Shown: piece by piece, positions 10,186 to 39,745 of the stretch | Position numbering within the stretch: the stretch's first letter is position 1 | Layout: each line of letters starts with the position of its first letter | IMG/VR virus record: IMGVR_UViG_2711768011_000006 | Length of the DNA: 39,935 nucleotides | DNA from: a virus | Taxonomy: Duplodnaviria > Heunggongvirae > Uroviricota > Caudoviricetes | Reading direction: 5' to 3' (one strand) | The notes under the pieces: generated by a model | Databases searched by the model: none | Seen by the model: only the letters and a program-made list of their open reading frames with translations | What the model was told of the DNA's origin: nothing | Translations under genes and position numbers: made by a program

Positions 10186-10608
10186 ATGGCTGAAACACAG
10201 ATGAGCATGTTTGGTGACAGCGAACAGCTGCACGCGCTGATTGACCGTCTGGATGATATTCCTGATGATGAGCTGAAAAAGAACTGGCCCGGCACGCTGC
10301 GGGACCTGGTTGATGTGATCAGTGCTGAACTGCACCGTCAGGGGATTGAACCTGCTCAGGCGGGAATGCTTGCCCGTAAGGTTGCAGCCGCACAGGCCGG
10401 GTACATGGGCGGGCGTGGTTATTATCTCCCGGTCGGTGAATCCCTTTTCACCGAACTGCGCAATAATGAAATTTTTTCCCGCTGGAGCCAGGGCGAAAAA
10501 ATTGAAACCCTGCGCCGCCACTACCAGATGTCAGAGACGCAGATTTACTCCGTTATCCGCAACCAGCGTCGCCTGCATCAGGAACGCACGCAGCCACGGC
10601 TTTTCTGA
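10186..10608 (+). CDS. Mor/C-family transcriptional activator (middle/late gene activator)
   Basis: 140 aa with Mor/C-like features (N-terminal MFGDSEQL, central GGRGYYLPVG, C-terminal HTH TQIYSVIRNQRRL). Located immediately upstream of the lysis genes. Confidence 0.8.
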   Translation: MAETQMSMFGDSEQLHALIDRLDDIPDDELKKNWPGTLRDLVDVISAELHRQGIEPAQAGMLARKVAAAQAGYMGGRGYYLPVGESLFTELRNNEIFSRWSQGEKIETLRRHYQMSETQIYSVIRNQRRLHQERTQPRLF

Positions 10609-32255: not shown

Positions 32256-33136
32256 TGTTTCATGTTGATAATAATTCCGGCGTGGCGAATATGCCTGCGC
32301 TGGCACCGGCGCAGAGTAATACCACCACCTGGTTTACCGAAGGTGACGGACAAAAAGGTATCAGCTGGATTGGTCAGGACTGGCTGAATATTCTCCAGGC
32401 CGAACTGCTGAATATTCTGGCTGAAGCCAGTATTCAGCCGGATAAGGCGCAGTTAAACCAGCTTACGCTGTCCATTAAAGCCATTATCGCTGCGAATGCC
32501 TTTTCCCGGAAAAATAACCTGAAAGAAATTGCTGATGCCGGTGCGGAGGCCCAGCGTCTGGCCCGTGGTTATCTTGGTCTGGGGACGCTTGCCACAAAAA
32601 ACAGTCTTGGTCCCGCTGACGTTAATGCCCTGGCGAAGGATCAGAATCTCGCCGACCTGGAGAATAAGGGAACCGCCCGTAATAATCTGGATGTTTACAG
32701 CAAAAGCGAAGGTGATAACCGTTACCTGCGCAGGGAGCAGAACGGCGCAGACATTCCGGATAAAGGGGCTTTTATCGATAACGTCGGTTTACGGGAAACG
32801 GTAAACAGGGCGGCGAATGCCCTGCCATCGGACGGCACCGCCGTTGCCGCGAACAGGCTGGCAAATGCCCACACAATTAATGGTGTTCCCTTTGACGGGA
32901 CGCAGGATATCACTATCTCATCAGGAACAGTAACCGCCATAAGACTGGGGTCGGTGACCGCACATATGCCCGGAACATGGGAAAGCTGGGATCTGAATCT
33001 GGGGGGCGGCAATGTTCTTACCGGAATTAAAGTACAGGATGTCGGTAAGAATACGGCAGATAACGTCGGCGGCGTGTATTACCGGCCGTTGCAGTATCTG
33101 TTAAATGGAGCATGGGTGACGGCTGCAAGTATATAA
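32255..33136 (+). CDS. Tail fiber protein (constant N-terminal part to about 32785 plus currently expressed variable C-terminal part)
   Basis: 293 aa. The 3' third lies inside the invertible segment; the gene crosses the left crossover site and the 68-bp inverted repeat. Confidence 0.8.
32772..32797. promoter_or_regulatory. gix-like recombination site (left): TTATCGATAACG-TC-GGTTTACGGGAA
   Basis: 26-bp site with 2-bp core. Right half-site is identical to the reverse complement of the left half of the right-hand site. Overall resembles the Gin gix site (TTCCTGTAAACC GA GGTTTTGGATAA) as recalled from memory. Confidence 0.55.
32786..32853 (+). repeat. Inverted repeat, left copy (68 bp), internal boundary of the invertible segment
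   Basis: Reverse complement of 34033-34100 with one mismatch. Encodes the shared residues [23 protein letters not shown] in both fiber variants. Confidence 0.85.
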
Positions 33137-33144
33137 TGATATTC

Positions 33145-33168
33145 AGAAGGCCTTCCGGCCTTCTTTAT
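33145..33168. terminator. Hairpin between the convergent tail fiber and tail fiber assembly genes (AGAAGGCC-TTCC-GGCCTTCT followed by TTTATT)
   Basis: 8-bp perfect stem with 4-nt loop, flanked by a T-run on the plus strand. Confidence 0.55.
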
Positions 33169-33689
33169 TACTGTGGCTGCTCAGGCCATTTAATGGCGTT
33201 AAATTCAGCTTCTGTTTTAATGGCGGGTAGTTCCATTTTCTTCACCTGACTGATGTATGCCATCCATTGGGTAAGTGCTGCTCTGTCTTCATCGCTGATG
33301 GTGCCCAGTTGTAGCTCCGTTCTCCAGTCATTAATTTTTTCATATGCCTGATTAAGATATGACTGGCGCATTGCTTCCAGTTTTCTTGCGTAGTTAACCG
33401 GAATACGGGAGATTATGCCATTATCAAACTTCCAGTTTCCTGAAATATCCGTGCCTTCAGGGAGTTCATCGACCTCAACCACAGAAAACCCCGCAGGATA
33501 CAGCGCCGAGGCGTCCTGTGATATTGAGCAGATAACGCCGCTGTCAGGTGTTATGCAAAGTTTATATTTTTTGGTGAATAATGGCAGGGATTCGTAGAAA
33601 TCCTTACCATCTTCACTCTGGAAATACTGAACATTATTACCATATGGCATATTTTCAGGATAATAACGGGTTATATTTTTTAGTTCCAT
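33168..33689 (-). CDS. Tail fiber assembly protein (chaperone for the alternative fiber C-terminus; Mu U'-like position)
   Basis: 173 aa inside the invertible segment on the opposite strand, immediately downstream of the alternative fiber C-terminal segment. Confidence 0.75.
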   Translation of the reverse strand: MELKNITRYYPENMPYGNNVQYFQSEDGKDFYESLPLFTKKYKLCITPDSGVICSISQDASALYPAGFSVVEVDELPEGTDISGNWKFDNGIISRIPVNYARKLEAMRQSYLNQAYEKINDWRTELQLGTISDEDRAALTQWMAYISQVKKMELPAIKTEAEFNAIKWPEQPQ

Positions 33690-33740: not shown

Positions 33741-34100
33741 TTATAACTGAGATACCGTAATCCATGTACCTCCGACTAATTTTTGCAGGGGTCTGAATGC
33801 TATAAAATCGTTTGAAGCATCAACTTTACTGTCAATCTGCAGGCCTGCCATAACATTACCGTACGCAGAGTAATATGCCCCACCGTACATTACCTGCCTG
33901 TTCTCTGCTCCCAGCCTGATATCCTGGATATATCGGGAATCCGCATCCTGCTGTGTTATACCAGAAGTGATGTTTATGTCCTGCGTCCCGTCAAAGGGAA
34001 CCCCATTAATATTTCTTGGGGTGGCGAGTCTATTCGCGGCAACGGCGGTGCCGTCCGATGGCAGAGCATTCGCCGCCCTGTTTACCGTTTCCCGTAAACC
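33741..34100 (-). other. Alternative tail fiber C-terminal coding segment (no start codon of its own; would be fused to the constant fiber part after inversion)
   Basis: Minus-strand frame continuous with the inverted repeat reads [47 protein letters not shown]...WITVSQL then stop. Its first residues are identical to the current fiber at the repeat and then diverge. Confidence 0.65.
34033..34100 (-). repeat. Inverted repeat, right copy (68 bp)
   Basis: Reverse complement of 32786-32853 with one mismatch. Confidence 0.85.
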
Positions 34101-34114
34101 GAGGTTTTCAGGAA
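34089..34114. promoter_or_regulatory. gix-like recombination site (right): TTCCCGTAAACC-GA-GGTTTTCAGGAA
   Basis: Near-palindromic 26-bp site. Differs from the recalled Mu gixL at 1 position in the left half. Confidence 0.6.
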
Positions 34115-34179: not shown

Positions 34180-34752
34180 ATGCTGATTGGGTATATCAGG
34201 GTGTCAACAAATGACCAGAATACGGCGCTACAAAGAAATGCGCTGGAATGTGCAGGATGTGAGCTGTTTTTCGAAGACAGAATAAGCGGTAAGACAAGGG
34301 AGCGTCCCGGACTTAAACGCGCATTAAAGCGACTCCGGCCAGGGGATACCCTGCTGGTCTGGAAACTGGATCGCCTTGGACGCAGTATGCAGCACCTTGT
34401 CCTTTTAACAGAAGAACTCCGGCAACGCGGCGTTAACTTCCGCAGCATTACGGACAATATTGATACATCCACTCCCATGGGACGTTTCTTTTTCCATATA
34501 ATGGGCGCGCTGGCGGAAATGGAGCGGGAACTCATTATTGAACGTACACGCGCGGGTCTTGCTGCTGCCCGTGCTCAGGGGCGTCATGGCGGCAGACCTC
34601 AGAAACTGACAGAGAAAGAGCGGGAGCAAATCGCCCGTTTGCTGGCTAATGGCGAGTCCCGTAAACAAATCGCACTGATATTTGATATTGGCCTTTCCAC
34701 CCTTTATCGTTATTTTCCTGCCTCACCAGCTCCGTCACCAAAAGTACCGTGA
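34180..34752 (+). CDS. gin: Site-specific DNA invertase, serine recombinase (Gin/Pin/Hin/Cin family)
   Basis: 190 aa. N-terminal catalytic region (MLIGYIRVSTNDQNTALQ...WKLDRLGRSMQHLV) and C-terminal HTH (GESRKQIALIFDIGLSTLYRYF). Sits adjacent to the invertible segment as in Mu. Confidence 0.95.
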   Translation: MLIGYIRVSTNDQNTALQRNALECAGCELFFEDRISGKTRERPGLKRALKRLRPGDTLLVWKLDRLGRSMQHLVLLTEELRQRGVNFRSITDNIDTSTPMGRFFFHIMGALAEMERELIIERTRAGLAAARAQGRHGGRPQKLTEKEREQIARLLANGESRKQIALIFDIGLSTLYRYFPASPAPSPKVP

Positions 34753-34837
34753 CGCTTTTTTGAATTTCCGCAAAACACATATTTTTCAGCGGTCGCTATT
34801 CTGACTCTGTTTAATTCAGAAACAGGCAGAAAAGACG

Positions 34838-36892
34838 ATGTCAGACTCCAAGTGGAAAATGCTCTCCGCCATGCCCGGAGAGTTTTCAGTCAAGGTTGCC
34901 GGTGGCACGGTGGCATTTATTGAAAGCCCTTTCCGCCCTTCGGGTAATAAAGGGGGGATCACCTTCGCAGACTGCGTGATCCGCTTCAGCACGAAAGAGC
35001 CATTATGGGTAATGCCGGTATCCGGTAATCCCAGTGCAGAAATCACCAGTTCAGGCGTGACTGGCATCATTCCAATCACATCTGACGTGGCCGGAACGCT
35101 CACGCCCTCCGACTGGAATGCACCGGATAACGCCGGGCCTTCCGGTAGCACGAATGGCAGCAGTTCAGAGCCGGAATATTACTTTGTTGTCATTCTCGCG
35201 GGTCAGTCAAATGGCATGGCCTACGGCGAGGGGCTGCCGTTACCGGATTCGTTTGACCGCCCGGACCCACGCATTAAGCAACTGGCACGCCGCAGTACGG
35301 TAACGCCCAACGGTACGTCGTGTACATACAACGACATCATTCCGGCAGACCACTGCCTGCATGATGTTCAGGATATGAGCGGGATAAACCACCCGAAAGC
35401 TGATCTGGCAAAAGGCCAGTACGGGACTGTCGGTCAGGGGTTGCATATTGCCAAAAAACTGCTTCCCTATATCCCACAGAATGCCGGGATACTTCTGGTG
35501 CCCTGTTGTCGTGGCGGGTCAGCATTCACCACTGGAGCCGACGGCTCATTCAGTGAGGCCAGCGGTGCTTCCGCTGATTCTTCACGCTGGGGGGCCGGTA
35601 AACCTCTGTATCAGGACCTGGTAAGCCGCACCAAAGTCGCGCTGGCGAAAAACCCGAAAAACAAACTTCTGGCTGTGGTCTGGATGCAGGGAGAGGCAGA
35701 CCTTGCCTCAGGAAGCCAGCAGCATAATAGTTTATTCACGGCCATGGTTCAGCAGTTCAGAACTGACCTGGCTCCGCTTGCTGCGCAGTGCGTGAGTGGA
35801 AATGCCACCACGGTGCCGTGGATTTGCGGTGATACCACGTATTACTGGAAAAACGCTGGCACCGATAAATATGAGGCAGTATACGGTGGCTACAAAGGCA
35901 AGGAAGCACAGAAAATTTTCTTTGTACCGTTCCTGACGGATGAGAATGGACAGAGCACGCCAACGAATGCTCCGGCGGAAGACCCGGATATTGTGGCTGT
36001 CGGGTATTACGGTGCAGCATCCCGAACCCAGGGCAGTTTTGTTTCGACACAGCGTGACAGCCATTTCAGCTCATGGGCACGCAGGGGCGTCATTTCAGAC
36101 CGTCTGGCCTCAGCTATTATGCTCCATGCAGGGCGCACGGCTGAACTGATGCGTGGGCAGACCGTGACACCACCGGATGAGAAGCCGTCACCTGATACAC
36201 CATCAAAACCGTCCACGCCACCCGCAGACACCACGACGATGAGTACGCTATTTGCTTACCGGGCATCTGAGTCTGAAGGACGGTTGACACCACAGGGTTG
36301 GGCTGCCGGAGGTGGCAAGGCTCAAATCGTGGATGATGCCGGAGCCAGCGGGGGTAAGGCAATGAAACTGACCAAGGAAACAGGAAGAGCCCCCTGGTAC
36401 CTTGAGCATGATGCTGGTAATGGTGCGGACCTGCTGGGTAAAGGTGGTCTTGTCAGTTGTCGTTTTAAACTCGATGGCGCGCTTACGGCTAATCAGTACG
36501 CACTGGCGCTGTACTGGCCGGTTTCTGCCCTGCCGCAAGGGGTTACTCTGGAAGGAAATGCCGGTCATAACCTGCTGGCATCGTTCTACGTACAGAGCGA
36601 TGCCACAGACCTTAACGTGATGTATCACAAAGGAAACACGGCGCAGAACACGAAGCTGGGGTCATTCGGCGCATTTAATAACGAATGGCATACGCTGGGC
36701 TTCCGTTTTGCCGGTAACAACAGTATTGAGGTGACGCCGGTCATTGATGGTAAGGACGGGACACCATTCATGCTGTCGCAGTCTCCGGTCGGCACGTTTA
36801 CGGCAGACAAGTTGCGCGTGACCGATATCACTAAAAATGCGACTTACCCGGTACTGATTGACAGTATCGTGGTGGAAGTGAATAACGCGTAA
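34838..36892 (+). CDS. Multidomain SGNH-hydrolase / sialate-O-acetylesterase-like protein with Pro/Thr-rich linker and C-terminal beta-sandwich-like domain
   Basis: 684 aa. The block YYFVVILAGQSNGMAYGEG matches the GQSN-type catalytic block of the SASA carbohydrate esterase family. A PDEKPSPDTPSKPSTPPADTTT linker follows. Not part of the canonical Mu gene set. Confidence 0.6.
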   Translation: MSDSKWKMLSAMPGEFSVKVAGGTVAFIESPFRPSGNKGGITFADCVIRFSTKEPLWVMPVSGNPSAEITSSGVTGIIPITSDVAGTLTPSDWNAPDNAGPSGSTNGSSSEPEYYFVVILAGQSNGMAYGEGLPLPDSFDRPDPRIKQLARRSTVTPNGTSCTYNDIIPADHCLHDVQDMSGINHPKADLAKGQYGTVGQGLHIAKKLLPYIPQNAGILLVPCCRGGSAFTTGADGSFSEASGASADSSRWGAGKPLYQDLVSRTKVALAKNPKNKLLAVVWMQGEADLASGSQQHNSLFTAMVQQFRTDLAPLAAQCVSGNATTVPWICGDTTYYWKNAGTDKYEAVYGGYKGKEAQKIFFVPFLTDENGQSTPTNAPAEDPDIVAVGYYGAASRTQGSFVSTQRDSHFSSWARRGVISDRLASAIMLHAGRTAELMRGQTVTPPDEKPSPDTPSKPSTPPADTTTMSTLFAYRASESEGRLTPQGWAAGGGKAQIVDDAGASGGKAMKLTKETGRAPWYLEHDAGNGADLLGKGGLVSCRFKLDGALTANQYALALYWPVSALPQGVTLEGNAGHNLLASFYVQSDATDLNVMYHKGNTAQNTKLGSFGAFNNEWHTLGFRFAGNNSIEVTPVIDGKDGTPFMLSQSPVGTFTADKLRVTDITKNATYPVLIDSIVVEVNNA

Positions 36893-36906: not shown

Positions 36907-36950
36907 TGCCGCCGGTAAGGGAAAACAAGAAACCGGCGGCAAAAAGATCG
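36907..36950. terminator. Hairpin downstream of the esterase gene (GCCGCCGGT-15 nt loop-ACCGGCGGC) flanked by A-runs
   Basis: 9-bp GC-rich perfect stem. The flanking A-runs would be T-runs for the minus strand, so this may act bidirectionally. Confidence 0.4.
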
Positions 36951-37036
36951 TTATATCCAAAGCAAAAAATGCAGTGCACCTTTTTACCTAACAGATATTA
37001 CCGGTGTCAACACCATGTCAATAATTGGGAGGGATA

Positions 37037-37219
37037 ATGACATTTTTACAGCTTATTTTATTGTATTTCTGCACGGCAGTATGTGCGTTATATCTGGTGA
37101 GTGGTGGTTATAAGGCCATCAGAAATTATGTTCGCCGCAAAATTGAGGACGCAGCAGCTGAAAAACTCAGTAAAACAGCGCAGGTAACTCCGCTCCCAAA
37201 AGACCCGACCCAGCCCTGA
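37037..37219 (+). CDS. Small membrane protein (single N-terminal transmembrane helix)
   Basis: ATG at 37037 preceded by GGGAGGG; 60 aa. Hydrophobic N-terminus (FLQLILLYFCTAVCALYLVSGG) followed by a charged tail. Confidence 0.4.
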   Translation: MTFLQLILLYFCTAVCALYLVSGGYKAIRNYVRRKIEDAAAEKLSKTAQVTPLPKDPTQP

Positions 37220-37254: not shown

Positions 37255-37509
37255 ATGCCAGAAATTAAAGGCACCGTCACTGAAGACCTGGTAAAACAGG
37301 CACTGTATTCCGGTGAAGTAAATAAGTTGCTGAAAGCGCAGGTCCGCAAGGATTTTGAGGCACAAATCGACACTTACGTTGATGAAGTGCTGGCAAAACT
37401 TATTGGGCCAGCAGTTGCGGCCAGTGATGCTGATAATGAGCCGAAAACCGACGCGCAGCCAGAGCAACCAGACCCGGCTCAGCCCGGAACTGACAGTACC
37501 ATGATGTAA
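37255..37509 (+). CDS. Small acidic hypothetical protein
   Basis: ATG at 37255 with strong ribosome-binding site (AAGGAGG) 7 nt upstream; 84 aa, acidic Pro-rich C-terminus. Confidence 0.5.
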   Translation: MPEIKGTVTEDLVKQALYSGEVNKLLKAQVRKDFEAQIDTYVDEVLAKLIGPAVAASDADNEPKTDAQPEQPDPAQPGTDSTMM

Positions 37510-37676
37510 CAATACAAACCGGTGGTGTCCTCTGCCGGTTTGACACTAATGAAAACATCTTTGCCGCTATCCAGCCATATGTAATCGCTGGATAGTATTT
37601 CGTATTCAGAAATATAGCTGCTTATGGAGCAGTCAATCCTGCTTCCCCATCCGGGCAGGCAAATGAACCGGTATCA

Positions 37677-37970
37677 TTAGTCCGATTCACGCTTTTGTAG
37701 AATCGTTCCCAGAATGCTATACAGCTCATTAGCCTGTTGCTCCATCATTGAGACGGAGGCTATACGGTGCAAAGTGATTTCAGGAGGTGGCACACCTCCA
37801 TCTTCTTGCTGTGGAGGAAAAACATAAGATTTAATAAAAAAGTTGAAGCATATGAACTCTCCCGCACTCGAACTGTATTTGCAGGCATCTGAATAATCGG
37901 AAAAATAATCATTATAGATTTCCGCATTTTCAATCATTTTTCGATTTCTCGTCGTTACATGATTGTCCAT
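37677..37970 (-). CDS. Hypothetical protein on the minus strand in the AT-rich cargo region
   Basis: 97-aa ORF in a region of much lower GC content than the phage body. Confidence 0.4.
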   Translation of the reverse strand: MDNHVTTRNRKMIENAEIYNDYFSDYSDACKYSSSAGEFICFNFFIKSYVFPPQQEDGGVPPPEITLHRIASVSMMEQQANELYSILGTILQKRESD

Positions 37971-38162
37971 AGCAGCCTCTTACGCTGGCAATTAACCAAT
38001 TGACTTCTATAAATTAGTTGATTTGTTTGCTTTGCGGTATTCAAATGTACAATCATTCAGCACTTATGCGTTACAGCACCGTTTAAAATTAGTGATCAAA
38101 CTCATAAATTTTCGCTAATGACATTTCGTGTTATTTGTTGTATCAATTAAATAAATCAAATC

Positions 38163-38179
38163 GATCGTTTTTGTCGATC
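38163..38179. promoter_or_regulatory. Clustered GATC (Dam) sites upstream of com-mom (38163-38166 and 38176-38179) within the direct repeat TCGATCG-N6-TCGATCG
   Basis: Two GATC sites 13 bp apart about 50 bp upstream of the com start. In Mu, mom transcription is controlled by Dam methylation of upstream GATC sites. Confidence 0.4.
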
Positions 38180-38226
38180 GATTGAGTGATAAAGATATCA
38201 ACAACAAAGCAGGAGGTTATGCGGCC

Positions 38227-38427
38227 ATGTATCGAAACATACGGTGCCGACATTGTAACAAGCTACTGGCACGAGCCAGCTTCAGTTATCTGGAAGTTAA
38301 ATGTCCGCGCTGTAAAACCCTCAATCAAATCACATCTCAGAGCGCCACAGAGCACCCCACATACACAAGGAAATCCTGTCGTGGGGAACAGAAAGCAAGT
38401 TACATCCCGTATCATCAGCACGCCTGA
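38227..38427 (+). CDS. com: Com-like zinc-finger translational activator of mom
   Basis: ATG at 38227 with AGGAGG 10 nt upstream. Translation [35 protein letters not shown] resembles Mu Com (two CxxC pairs). Overlaps the 5' end of the mom frame. Confidence 0.8.
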
Positions 38428-39118
38428 ACTTATTCACTATAACGACAATATCGTCGGTTATGGCTCCCGTGAGTTACGGGTTGAGACAATAAGTTGCTGG
38501 CTGGCCCGGCTGGTCGTCGTCAATAAACATTACAGCCATCGTTTCGTAAATAATTCCTACCTTCATCTGGGCATATTTTCAGAACGGGAGCTGGTTGGCG
38601 TAATGCAATGGGGTTATGCCCTTAATCCAAACAATGGTGCACGCGTCGTAACTGGCACGCAGAACCGCGAATATATGGAGCTTAACCGGTTATGGCTGCA
38701 TGACTGTATGCCGAGAAACTCCGAATCAAGGGCAATCAGTTACGCGCTCAAACTAATCAGACAACTTTATCCGCAGGTGCAGTGGGTTCAGTCGTTTGCA
38801 GATGAGCGTTGTGGCTGTCTTGGTGTCGTGTACCAGGCAAGCAATTTTGATTATGTAGGCAGTCATGAAACAACATTCTATGAACTTGATGGCGAGTGGT
38901 ATCACGAGATTTGCAAGAATGCAATCAAACGAGGAGGACAGCGAGGTGAACATCTGCGGGCTAATATCGACAGAGCCAGTGTTCATAAATTCCGTCAGTT
39001 TCGTTACATCCGGTTTCTGGACAAGAGAGCCAGAAAACGCCTTAACACAAAGCTATTCAAAGTCCAGCCTTACCCAAAACCACAAACAGTTAAAACTGGT
39101 TTGAAAGAGAGTGAATGA
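38381..39118 (+). CDS. mom: Mom-like DNA modification protein; start uncertain (GTG at 38381 chosen; frame is open from 38186)
   Basis: Long ORF overlapping the com 3' end in another frame, as in Mu. Sequence ([18 protein letters not shown]...FADERCG...[10 protein letters not shown]) resembles Mu Mom as recalled. No in-frame ATG exists between com and the conserved region. Confidence 0.8.
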
Positions 39119-39164: not shown

Positions 39165-39204
39165 GTATCAAATAAGTTGCGTATCGGCGTTTTTCAGCGG
39201 TATC
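39165..39204 (-). repeat. attR-like transposase-binding motifs (reverse complement of the left-end motif); terminal site truncated by the N gap
   Basis: GTATCAAATAAG (39165-39176) is the reverse complement of CTTATTTGATAC. CGGTATC (39198-39204) is the reverse complement of GATACCG and abuts the N run. Confidence 0.5.
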
Positions 39205-39453
39205 NNNNNNNNNNNNNNNNNNNNNNNNNNNNNNNNNNNNNNNNNNNNNNNNNNNNNNNNNNNNNNNNNNNNNNNNNNNNNNNNNNNNNNNNNNNNNNNN
39301 NNNNNNNNNNNNNNNNNNNNNNNNNNNNNNNNNNNNNNNNNNNNNNNNNNNNNNNNNNNNNNNNNNNNNNNNNNNNNNNNNNNNNNNNNNNNNNNNNNNN
39401 NNNNNNNNNNNNNNNNNNNNNNNNNNNNNNNNNNNNNNNNNNNNNNNNNNNNN
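39205..39453. other. Assembly gap (249 N)
   Basis: Continuous run of N. ORFs translated across it (39111-39470, 39194-39748) are artefacts. Confidence 1.
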
Positions 39454-39745
39454 CCAGTGGCCGGCGCTGACGTACTATGCAGATGATGGCTGGGCTGAGG
39501 CGGACAATAACATCGCTGAAAATGCGTTGCGGATGGTCAGTCTGGGCCGCAAAAACTACCTGTTCTTCGGTTCGGATCATGGAGGAGAGCGGGGAGCGCT
39601 GCTGTACAGCCTGATCGGGACGTGCAAACTGAACGGAGTGGAGCCAGAAAGCTACCTCCGCTATGTCCTTGACGTCATAGCCGACTGGCCGATAAACCGG
39701 GTCGGCGAACTGCTCCCCTGGCGCGTAGCACTGCCGACTGAATAA
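39454..39745 (+). CDS. tnpC: IS66-family transposase TnpC, C-terminal fragment (5' part lost in or before the gap)
   Basis: Frame open from the gap edge: QWPALTYYADDGWAEADNNIAENALRMVSLGRKNYLFFGSDHGGERGALLYSLIGTCKLNGVEP..., the conserved C-terminal block of IS66 transposases. Confidence 0.8.

Follow-up and report, generated by a model that had tools for sequence, protein, structure and literature searches.

The stretch of DNA analyzed here, called the window below, comprises the 39,935 nucleotides of the Caudoviricetes record IMGVR_UViG_2711768011_000006 and holds a complete Mu-like prophage, with its left end at about position 611-616. Its plus strand carries at 34838-36892 an ATG-started open reading frame (ORF) of 684 codons plus a stop codon, as given by the program-made ORF list. 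The results indicate that the product is most probably a NanS-p-type sialate 9-O-acetylesterase, and that its gene is a fixed component of the Sp18-like group of Mu-like Escherichia coli prophages, i.e., not sporadic cargo. The annotated start codon is supported by Trp6, which is conserved down to a remote relative, protein P0006. In a PHROG profile search, phrog_143 covered residues 71-684 with an E value of 1.7e-296. A public protein that is 100% identical (P0124) is the head of a cluster of 599 members, and close relatives carry the name "sialate O-acetylesterase".

A first-pass annotation, made from the sequence letters, had divided the protein into an N-terminal part of no known function, an esterase domain with a GQSN motif, a Pro/Thr-rich linker and a C-terminal beta-sandwich-like domain. 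All four parts are present in the 684-residue ORF (Table 1). The description of the C-terminal domain was right, as judged from its match to the solved structure of a NanS-p C-terminal domain (PDB 6YP6), and the N-terminal part, residues 1 to about 95, indeed lacks any Pfam or NCBIfam match. The linker between the catalytic and C-terminal domains differs from locus to locus both in length and in sequence.

The enzyme part could be assigned by profile and by structure. The Pfam SASA profile (PF03629) matched residues 117-312 with 51.3 bits against a gathering cut-off of 24.8, and residues 110-428 aligned with residues 16-331 of the NanS/YjhS chain (PDB 3PT5) with an E value of 1.8e-117. The SGNH blocks described for 3PT5, i.e., 17-GQSNA-21, 120-RGGSAF-125, 178-MQGEFD-183 and R298..S-H301-F-S (PMC10792757), have counterparts in the window protein at GQSN 122-125, RGGSAF 225-230, MQGEAD 283-288 and RDSHFS 406-411. 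Block I (G122-Q-S124-N125) pairs with GQSNA, the oxyanion-hole blocks II and III (R225-GGSAF-230 and M283-QGEAD-288) pair with RGGSAF and MQGEFD, and block V (R406-D-S-H409-F-S) pairs with the segment around H301. When six esterases of different loci were aligned, block I, the nucleophile Ser124, the base His409 and most of the remaining block residues proved invariant. The first-pass annotation had likened the protein to the sialate O-acetylesterases of lambdoid prophages in enterohaemorrhagic E. coli (EHEC), and had named a missing SASA/SGNH match or missing catalytic residues as grounds for giving the idea up. The matches to 3PT5, 6YP6 and phrog_143 confirm the NanS-p family, the PF03629 match is significant, and Ser124, His409 and all four blocks are intact. 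Because the catalytic domain is 94% identical to that of a lambdoid allele, the same chemistry is expected, and the window protein should be an active NanS-p-type sialate 9-O-acetylesterase.

The chromosomal NanS enzyme (YjhS) shares the catalytic domain over its full length, with matching block motifs (MQGEAD in the window protein, MQGEFD in 3PT5). On the other hand, it is a single-domain protein of about 326 residues that serves the sialic-acid catabolism of the host, whereas the window protein is phage-encoded and adds an N-terminal domain, two linkers and a lectin-like domain. The profile search for a lectin-like C-terminal domain was also positive: PF20350 (DUF6645) matched residues 533-650 above its cut-off (E 7e-68), and residues 469-683 matched 6YP6 with an E value of 7e-98. 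This domain has been described as a lectin-like jelly-roll (PMC10462455).

The N-terminal domain distinguishes the window protein from the lambdoid enzymes. When the N-terminal 113 residues were searched alone against Pfam up to an E value of 10, no match was found, including to PF08410 (DUF1737), and NCBIfam searched with the whole protein returned nothing in the N-terminal part. A PHROG search with the same 113 residues gave a single marginal match (phrog_27997, E 0.021), and a word-indexed protein search retrieved near-identical fragments from E. coli and Shigella only. In a Pfam search done likewise, the esterase of the lambdoid locus L005 showed DUF1737 with an E value of 1.6e-13, and DUF1737 was absent from four Mu-like proteins. 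All Mu-like versions examined share the N-terminal domain with 61-100% identity. They fall into two subtypes, with 98-100% identity within a subtype and 61-62% between them, and the identity to the lambdoid DUF1737 N-terminus is only 13-17%, which is noise level.

For this domain, an exhaustive HMMER search of 1.84 billion representative sequences yielded P0006 as the sole remote relative (30% identity); this sequence is a fragment with the layout N-terminal domain, Pro-rich linker and start of an esterase. When the N-domain alignment was used to scan 185,579 species-representative genomes, no locus could be confirmed. In a large protein collection, the 22 clusters that matched over the full length carry only SASA and DUF6645; of the clusters that matched about 85% of the query, nearly all have DUF1737, the few exceptions being partial sequences or ones truncated at the N-terminus. 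Matches in the phage collection agree with this division, since sampled lambdoid Shiga toxin (Stx) phages match only from residue 94-112 or so onward (one record from residue 63), and a match from residue 4 was found only in records labeled as containing an inserted Mu-like phage. An AlphaFold2 model from a six-sequence alignment shows a domain of about 75 residues with six strands and no helix, with predicted local distance difference test (pLDDT) scores of 77-88 over residues 10-70, followed by a disordered linker (residues 82-113, pLDDT below 50). The modeled fold is unlike that of DUF1737, which has one helix and three strands. As judged from these sequence comparisons, the Mu-like lineage has an N-terminal domain of its own in the place that DUF1737 takes in the lambdoid versions. 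The first-pass annotation had missed this; the domain is one of three new points, together with the mosaicism and the promoter motif described below.

The inserted Mu-like phages mentioned above occur in LC727881.1 and LC727895.1, two records of Stx-converting prophages of about 93 kb in which a region is labeled 'region of the inserted Bacteriophage Mu-like phage'. That of LC727881.1 encodes a full-length Mu-type esterase with 66% identity from residue 4, and LC727895.1 matched over the gin region. The position of these regions inside Stx prophage records indicates that a Mu-like phage transposed into an Stx prophage. Three records of Escherichia myoviruses of about 33-40 kb (ON470599.1, ON470623.1 and PV468777.1) contain an esterase-like stretch, which covers about 500 nt of the catalytic domain with 76% nucleotide identity, and one of them is annotated 'similar to DUF1737 domain-containing protein'. 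By record size and name these phages look P2-like, and the esterase family may therefore span a third phage type.

Comparison of the alleles domain by domain revealed a mosaic. Against the lambdoid L005 protein, the catalytic and C-terminal domains of the window protein are 94% and 92% identical, whereas the N-terminal region is only 13% identical. Against the Mu-like allele of O157 strains (loci L008 and L009), the N-terminal domain is 61.5%, the catalytic domain 63-64% and the C-terminal domain 40-42% identical. Locus L006 has an N-terminal domain that is 100% identical to that of the window but a C-terminal domain with only 34% identity, and among the Mu-like loci C-terminal identity ranges from 34% to 94%; with variants this divergent, ligand preferences are expected to differ. 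These domain-wise values show that the three domains have separate histories. The enzyme part of the window allele evidently was exchanged with a lambdoid allele, and the N-terminal domain stays with the Mu-like backbone. Such a tie to the backbone is what a phage-specific attachment module predicts, although it falls short of proof.

The backbone itself is collinear with the RV06 prophage of O157:H7 (L009), but the two are strongly mosaic. Identity reaches 96-99.7% for the B transposition protein, lysozyme, the portal protein and the major head protein, is 93% for transposase A and 84% for the C-like activator, and drops to 73-78% for protease/scaffold, gp35, sheath, tape measure and the N and P proteins. 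The Sp18-type esterase of O157:H7 at L008 and L009 thus resembles that of the window in its slot, in the three-gene block described below, in the type of N-terminal domain and in lying within a collinear prophage with 98% capsid protein identity, and differs in the catalytic and C-terminal domains by the values given above.

In E. coli JKHS016 (L001, NZ_CP147059.1 926012-970112), a copy of the locus that is 100% identical from gin to com (4.1 kb) belongs to a rearranged prophage. An inversion there reaches from the head protease gene to where the tape-measure gene begins, and genes at its break points, including those for portal, protease and tape measure, are annotated as partial pseudogenes.

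The distribution of the gene was examined by a DNA search for the N-terminal segments and for com-mom in 5,426 complete E. coli genomes. The window-type N-terminal segment was present in 28 genomes and the O157-type segment in 205, which together equal the 233 genomes that have the com-mom of this lineage. Counted as places, there were 246 + 39 = 285 Mu-type N-terminal segments and 285 com-mom segments. The block occupies the same slot between gin and com-mom, at differing chromosomal sites, in loci L001-L004 and L006-L009. These include a mouse isolate with gin deleted (L002), an IS1-truncated prophage (L004), a Shiga toxin-producing E. coli from a marmot (L006) and O157:H7 (L008 and L009), next to L003 and L007. 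In phage Mu, com follows directly after gin, and in SfMu the distance from gin to mom is only about 1.5 kb; neither has the block, which places it in the Sp18-like lineage and not in Mu-like phages at large. Among the genomes searched, the block apparently is present in every Sp18-like Mu prophage, as expected for a fixed feature of the lineage. The earlier suggestion that such an esterase is unusual in a Mu-like phage is therefore not borne out, and the term cargo does not fit a publicly annotated lineage gene that keeps the same slot in prophages at many chromosomal sites. An O157:H7 prophage of this lineage was sequenced about two decades ago. Among the papers searched, none names both NanS-p and Mu-like.

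The upstream region of the gene suggests when it is expressed. When the upstream regions of lys, of the head protease/scaffold gene and of com were searched for common words, TTCCGCAAA emerged, and it is also found upstream of the esterase gene. An 18-nt pattern, TTTCTGAWRTYCCGCAAA, was built solely from the sites at lys (10602) and at the head protease gene (18789). With up to two mismatches allowed on both strands of the window, it had one further match, located directly upstream of the esterase gene, and none in 100 shuffled sequences. Counted from where the TTCCGCAAA core begins, a -10-like hexamer follows at 31 nt; at lys and the protease gene, the corresponding hexamers TACGCT and TATGCT follow the first base of the CCGCAAA core at 32 nt. 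In the O157 prophage, the motif is present at lys without mismatch and at the protease gene with one mismatch, and at the same position upstream of the esterase gene there is a diverged copy with a TATGAT hexamer at the matching place. No such motif is found upstream of the esterase gene in the lambdoid locus. In phage Mu, a related core, TCCCGCACCT, occurs upstream of lys and gene I, where the C-dependent late promoters Plys and PI are located. The motif suggests late expression of the esterase gene, which would be transcribed in the lytic cycle from its own promoter, with a Mor/C-family protein encoded at 10186-10608 as the likely activator. The gene thus seems to be wired into the Mu-type late program.

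Motif-like sites with 3-4 mismatches (TTTCTGAAATAACGCATA or TGTCTGAAATAACGCATA) were also seen just beyond the tail-fibre assembly gene in three other loci (L002:5915, L006:6624 and L007:7821). That of L002 falls in the gin-deleted stretch before the esterase gene. At this stringency no such site was found in the window.

The esterase gene is the first of three. It is followed by genes for a DUF1378 protein, with one hydrophobic transmembrane helix (residues 7-25), and for a DUF826 protein, an order that is found in Mu-like as well as lambdoid loci. The lambdoid L005 locus has Q antiterminator, tRNA genes, esterase (DUF1737, SASA and DUF6645), DUF1378, DUF826, holin and lysozyme. The shared order defines a three-gene block common to lambdoid and Mu-like phages, and the two small genes, which the first-pass annotation had left out, belong to it. 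The position of the esterase gene had been given as between the invertase and com-mom, and Pfam matches place a Gin-type invertase to its left and com (38182-38427) and mom (ending at 39118) to the right of the block.

Table 1. Features of the esterase locus in the window (positions in nucleotides from the first letter of the window).
Feature	Position	Strand	Basis
Gin-type DNA invertase, left neighbor, phage backbone	34180..34752	+	Resolvase E 1.6e-51 and HTH_7
Late-promoter-like activator motif TTTTTGAATTTCCGCAAA	34757..34774	+	TTTCTGAWRTYCCGCAAA match, 64 nt upstream of the esterase ATG
-10-like hexamer TATTCT, putative promoter element	34797..34802	+	31 nt downstream of the TTCCGCAAA core start
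nanS-p-type sialate O-acetylesterase gene (probable)	34838..36892	+	ORF, phrog_143, 3PT5 and 6YP6 matches, identical P0124
N-terminal domain, Mu-like-prophage-specific, aa 1-95 (folded core aa ~7-79)	34838..35122	+	No Pfam match; AlphaFold2 model all-beta
Linker 1, flexible, Ser/Gly/Asn-rich, aa 96-112	35123..35173	+	Low pLDDT; poor conservation between loci
SGNH/SASA catalytic domain, aa 113-435	35174..36142	+	3PT5 match E 1.8e-117
Codon of Ser124	35207-35209	+	SGNH blocks via 3PT5 alignment
Codon of His409	36062-36064	+	SGNH blocks via 3PT5 alignment
Linker 2, Pro/Thr/Ser-rich, aa 436-468	36143..36241	+	Visible in translation; TVTPPDEKPSPDTPSKPSTPPADTTT
C-terminal DUF6645 lectin-like jelly-roll domain, aa 469-684	36242..36889	+	PF20350 E 7e-68; 6YP6 E 7e-98
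Hairpin, 10-bp GC-rich, conserved, between esterase gene and DUF1378	36907..36941		-23.3 kcal/mol, z -4.45
DUF1378 small membrane protein, block gene 2	37025..37219	+	PF07125 E 1.2e-31
DUF826 small protein, block gene 3	37255..37509	+	PF05696 E 6.4e-16; phrog_311
com and mom, right neighbors, phage backbone	38182..39118	+	Zn_ribbon_Com E 1.3e-12; Mom PF25680 E 1.6e-77

The conserved hairpin behind the esterase gene has a 15-nt loop and also occurs in the lambdoid L005 locus. It looks like a terminator for leftward transcription, although the flanking genes run rightward; a U-run follows it on the minus strand alone, so rightward transcription would not be terminated here. A terminator scan detected none between the genes of the block.

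In overall design the window protein is close to the lambdoid NanS-p enzymes (L0105/z1466 of 933W; vb_24B_21, i.e., gp84, of phi24B). Like these, it combines SASA/SGNH with DUF6645, is prophage-borne, lacks a signal peptide and is encoded directly upstream of DUF1378 and DUF826, and it is about 65% identical to the proteins of 933W-type phages over residues ~94-683. It differs in the N-terminal domain, which is unrelated to DUF1737, larger and all-beta, and in the type of host phage, a transposable Mu-like myovirus. The setting is different as well: the lambdoid gene lies between Q (or stx) and the holin gene and is controlled by Q antitermination, whereas the window gene lies between gin and com-mom behind a putative promoter that resembles the lys and head late promoters of its own phage.

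For the lambdoid NanS-p enzymes, de-O-acetylation of Neu5,9Ac2 and of mucin O-glycans has been reported, as well as support of lysogen growth, and nanS-p is among the most strongly induced late genes, while its role in the phage's own cycle was called open (PMC8065619). By analogy, the window enzyme would strip 9-O-acetyl groups from free and mucin-bound sialic acids, making these usable by sialidases and by E. coli, and the DUF6645 lectin-like domain probably directs it to glycans. No signal peptide, hydrophobic N-terminus or membrane segment was found in the protein (maximum hydropathy 1.03), which means that it would reach extracellular mucin only via lysis. Its release might be as free protein or on virions. 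Of the two functions proposed in the first-pass annotation, a contribution to host fitness agrees with the published lambdoid work (PMC8065619), but a receptor-modifying role found no specific support.

Several observations weigh against parts of the preferred reading, i.e., a late-expressed NanS-p-type esterase that is fixed in the Sp18-like lineage. The substrate specificity is extrapolated from relatives with catalytic domains that are 63-94% identical. The 1:1 relation of esterase and com-mom rests on equal totals across genomes. As to the promoter, the likeness of the esterase site to those of lys and the protease gene is limited to their upstream half, with no counterpart of their downstream CC-GCCCC, and a similar motif was found upstream of neither com nor the baseplate genes, so not every late operon is marked. 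A generic scan for sigma-70 promoters and terminators performed no better on the window than on shuffled sequences. Finally, the stretch from gin to the esterase gene showed no terminator, and Mu lysogens express gin, so that read-through into the esterase gene may occur in the lysogenic state.

The alternative that stands up best holds that the N-terminal domain is a particle anchor, to the capsid or to another virion surface, and a counterpart of the phi24B DUF1737 domain. Virions would then carry a mucus-directed esterase and lectin module, a proposal that is compatible with the NanS-p assignment and extends it. The phi24B homologue gp84 is an abundant virion protein that is processed after release; the capsid hexons are bound by hexamers of its DUF1737 domain, which spans residues 2-57 and has one helix and three strands, and a link of the capsid-decorating protein to mucus was proposed in the same preprint (10.64898/2026.04.10.717836). 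The window protein has the gp84 layout of small N-terminal domain, disordered linker, enzyme, second linker and lectin-like domain, with a different N-terminal domain. In the general arrangement of a small N-terminal domain followed by flexible glycan-directed domains, it resembles capsid decoration proteins such as gp84 and T4 Hoc. Further features fit the same idea: the N-terminal domain is kept by the Mu-like backbone although the other two domains are swapped with lambdoid alleles, the gene is fixed in the lineage, and it has a late-type promoter motif like that of the head genes. In addition, the O157 relative Sp18 is predicted to be intact and packages DNA efficiently (PMC2669165).

The N-terminal domain shows no detectable sequence or fold relation to DUF1737, and no Ig-like domain of the Hoc type was recognized in the window protein. 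Other comparisons speak against a particle anchor. The N-terminal domain does not co-vary with the major capsid protein: between the window and the O157 prophage, the N-domain subtypes are about 61% identical, whereas the capsid proteins are 98% identical. The model of the domain was built on an alignment of six sequences only. Virion display is thus possible, if clearly short of an even chance. Carried further, and held more tentatively still, the comparison with gp84 would make the NanS-p proteins swappable 'enzyme plus lectin' cassettes that are mounted on particles via morphotype-specific adaptors, with DUF1737 in lambdoid phages and the N-terminal domain as an unrecognized virion anchor in Sp18-like Mu phages. 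If that were true, the esterase would be a structural, mucus-directed decoration of a transposable phage and not a metabolic gift to the host.

The open path from gin bears on a different alternative, in which uninduced lysogens produce the esterase at a low level, through transcription that runs on from gin or starts at a weak sigma-70 promoter, and the enzyme acts inside the cell on imported Neu5,9Ac2 to give the host a growth advantage without lysis. The missing terminator and a sigma-70-like site at 34682-34710 are compatible with this, lambdoid nanS-p alleles allow lysogens to grow on Neu5,9Ac2 as sole carbon source (PMC8065619), and the chromosomal NanS enzyme, whose catalytic domain is so similar (E 1.8e-117), serves host catabolism. 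However, the sigma-70-like site scores 9/12, and such sites are no commoner here than in shuffled sequence, and the gene is immediately preceded by the specific late-promoter motif. A purely cytoplasmic enzyme would have little use for a lectin-like targeting domain and long flexible linkers, and the lambdoid nanS-p genes are strongly induced along with the late genes (PMC8065619). Intracellular use in the lysogen is therefore rather unlikely as the explanation for the gene.

A receptor-modifying enzyme on the tail or its fibres, which would de-O-acetylate bacterial O-antigen or capsule and so aid adsorption, is improbable. The idea has been raised for NanS-p in general (PMC8065619), the gene lies just past the tail-fibre/invertase region, and residues 211-312 weakly match phrog_25867 'tail protein' (E 1.2e-6), with 29% identity over residues 115-312 to an Arthrobacter phage minor tail protein. 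These weak matches are confined to the common SGNH core, however, and the catalytic domain is far nearer to the sialate-specific NanS and NanS-p enzymes (E 1.8e-117; 94% identity to the lambdoid allele). Furthermore, the tail-fibre/invertase region ends with gin; the esterase gene comes after it and apparently has its own promoter, and no tail-attachment domain was recognized in Pfam and PHROG searches with the N-terminus. That the gene is an inactive residue of recombination with a lambdoid phage can be set aside as highly improbable, since a frameshifted esterase copy in the IS1-truncated prophage L004 is outweighed by the intact 684-residue ORF, the invariant Ser124 and His409 in six loci, the 599-member cluster headed by the identical protein and the retention of the gene in diverged prophages of 233 genomes.

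The preferred reading of a lineage-fixed NanS-p-type esterase bears on how these genes are viewed. The nanS-p genes are usually discussed as accessory genes of Shiga toxin phages that feed the lysogen with sialic acids from mucin. Three results change this picture: the esterase cassette is also fixed in a very different phage type, a transposable Mu-like myovirus that about 4% of complete E. coli genomes carry, O157:H7 among them; lambdoid alleles exchange the enzyme part with it, but the N-terminal domain is kept by the phage backbone; and the gene seems to have become part of the Mu-type late program. Together with the capsid-binding DUF1737 of the lambdoid protein (10.64898/2026.04.10.717836), these results lead to the hypothesis that the esterase might serve the phage particle across phage families, e.g., in adherence to or penetration of mucus. 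This would bear on models of phage-mucus interaction and on the contribution of EHEC prophages to gut colonization. If the virion hypothesis is wrong, the correction that the gene is ordinary for its lineage and publicly annotated is still useful.

The element that carries the block shows the hallmarks of a Mu-like phage. It has transposase A and B genes, a Mor/C activator, head and tail genes, gin and com-mom, and is collinear with Mu. Near-identical RefSeq prophages are annotated with a Mu transposase, a Mor-family activator, lysozyme, portal and Mu gpT major head protein, and also with sheath, tube, tape measure, baseplate and tail fibre genes. Nothing relevant came from scans for defence systems (PADLOC), Rfam families and tRNA genes. 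A homology break at about 34686 was considered as the left edge of the block and rejected. It reflects a gin deletion in some prophages that keep the gin 3' end, and the gin-deleted prophage of strain M3 still has this 3' end.

Next to gin, 86-nt inverted repeats (32777-32862 and 34024-34109) that are 93% complementary flank an invertible segment of about 1.16 kb. Its plus strand contains the 3' end of the fibre gene, and its minus strand contains a tail-fibre assembly gene (33168-33689) and an alternative fibre 3' end. There is a single assembly-chaperone gene, which in the orientation shown is on the strand opposite to the complete fibre gene.

On the other side of the block, the stretch between DUF826 and com (37541-38180) varies among otherwise similar Mu-like prophages, and homology to some genomes stops at about 37541. 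In the window it contains a minus-strand ORF of 97 residues (37677-37970) without a match in Pfam, PHROG or PADLOC; elsewhere, a 66-residue plus-strand ORF or pseudogenes are found in its place. Beyond mom, bases are masked (N) at 39170-39470, followed by an ORF fragment (39527-39745) containing LFFGSDHGGERGALLYSLIGTCKLNGVEPESYLRYVL, which resembles the C-terminus of an IS66-family transposase. In strain JKHS016, transposase pseudogenes of the IS66 and ISL3 families are annotated farther out in the flank.

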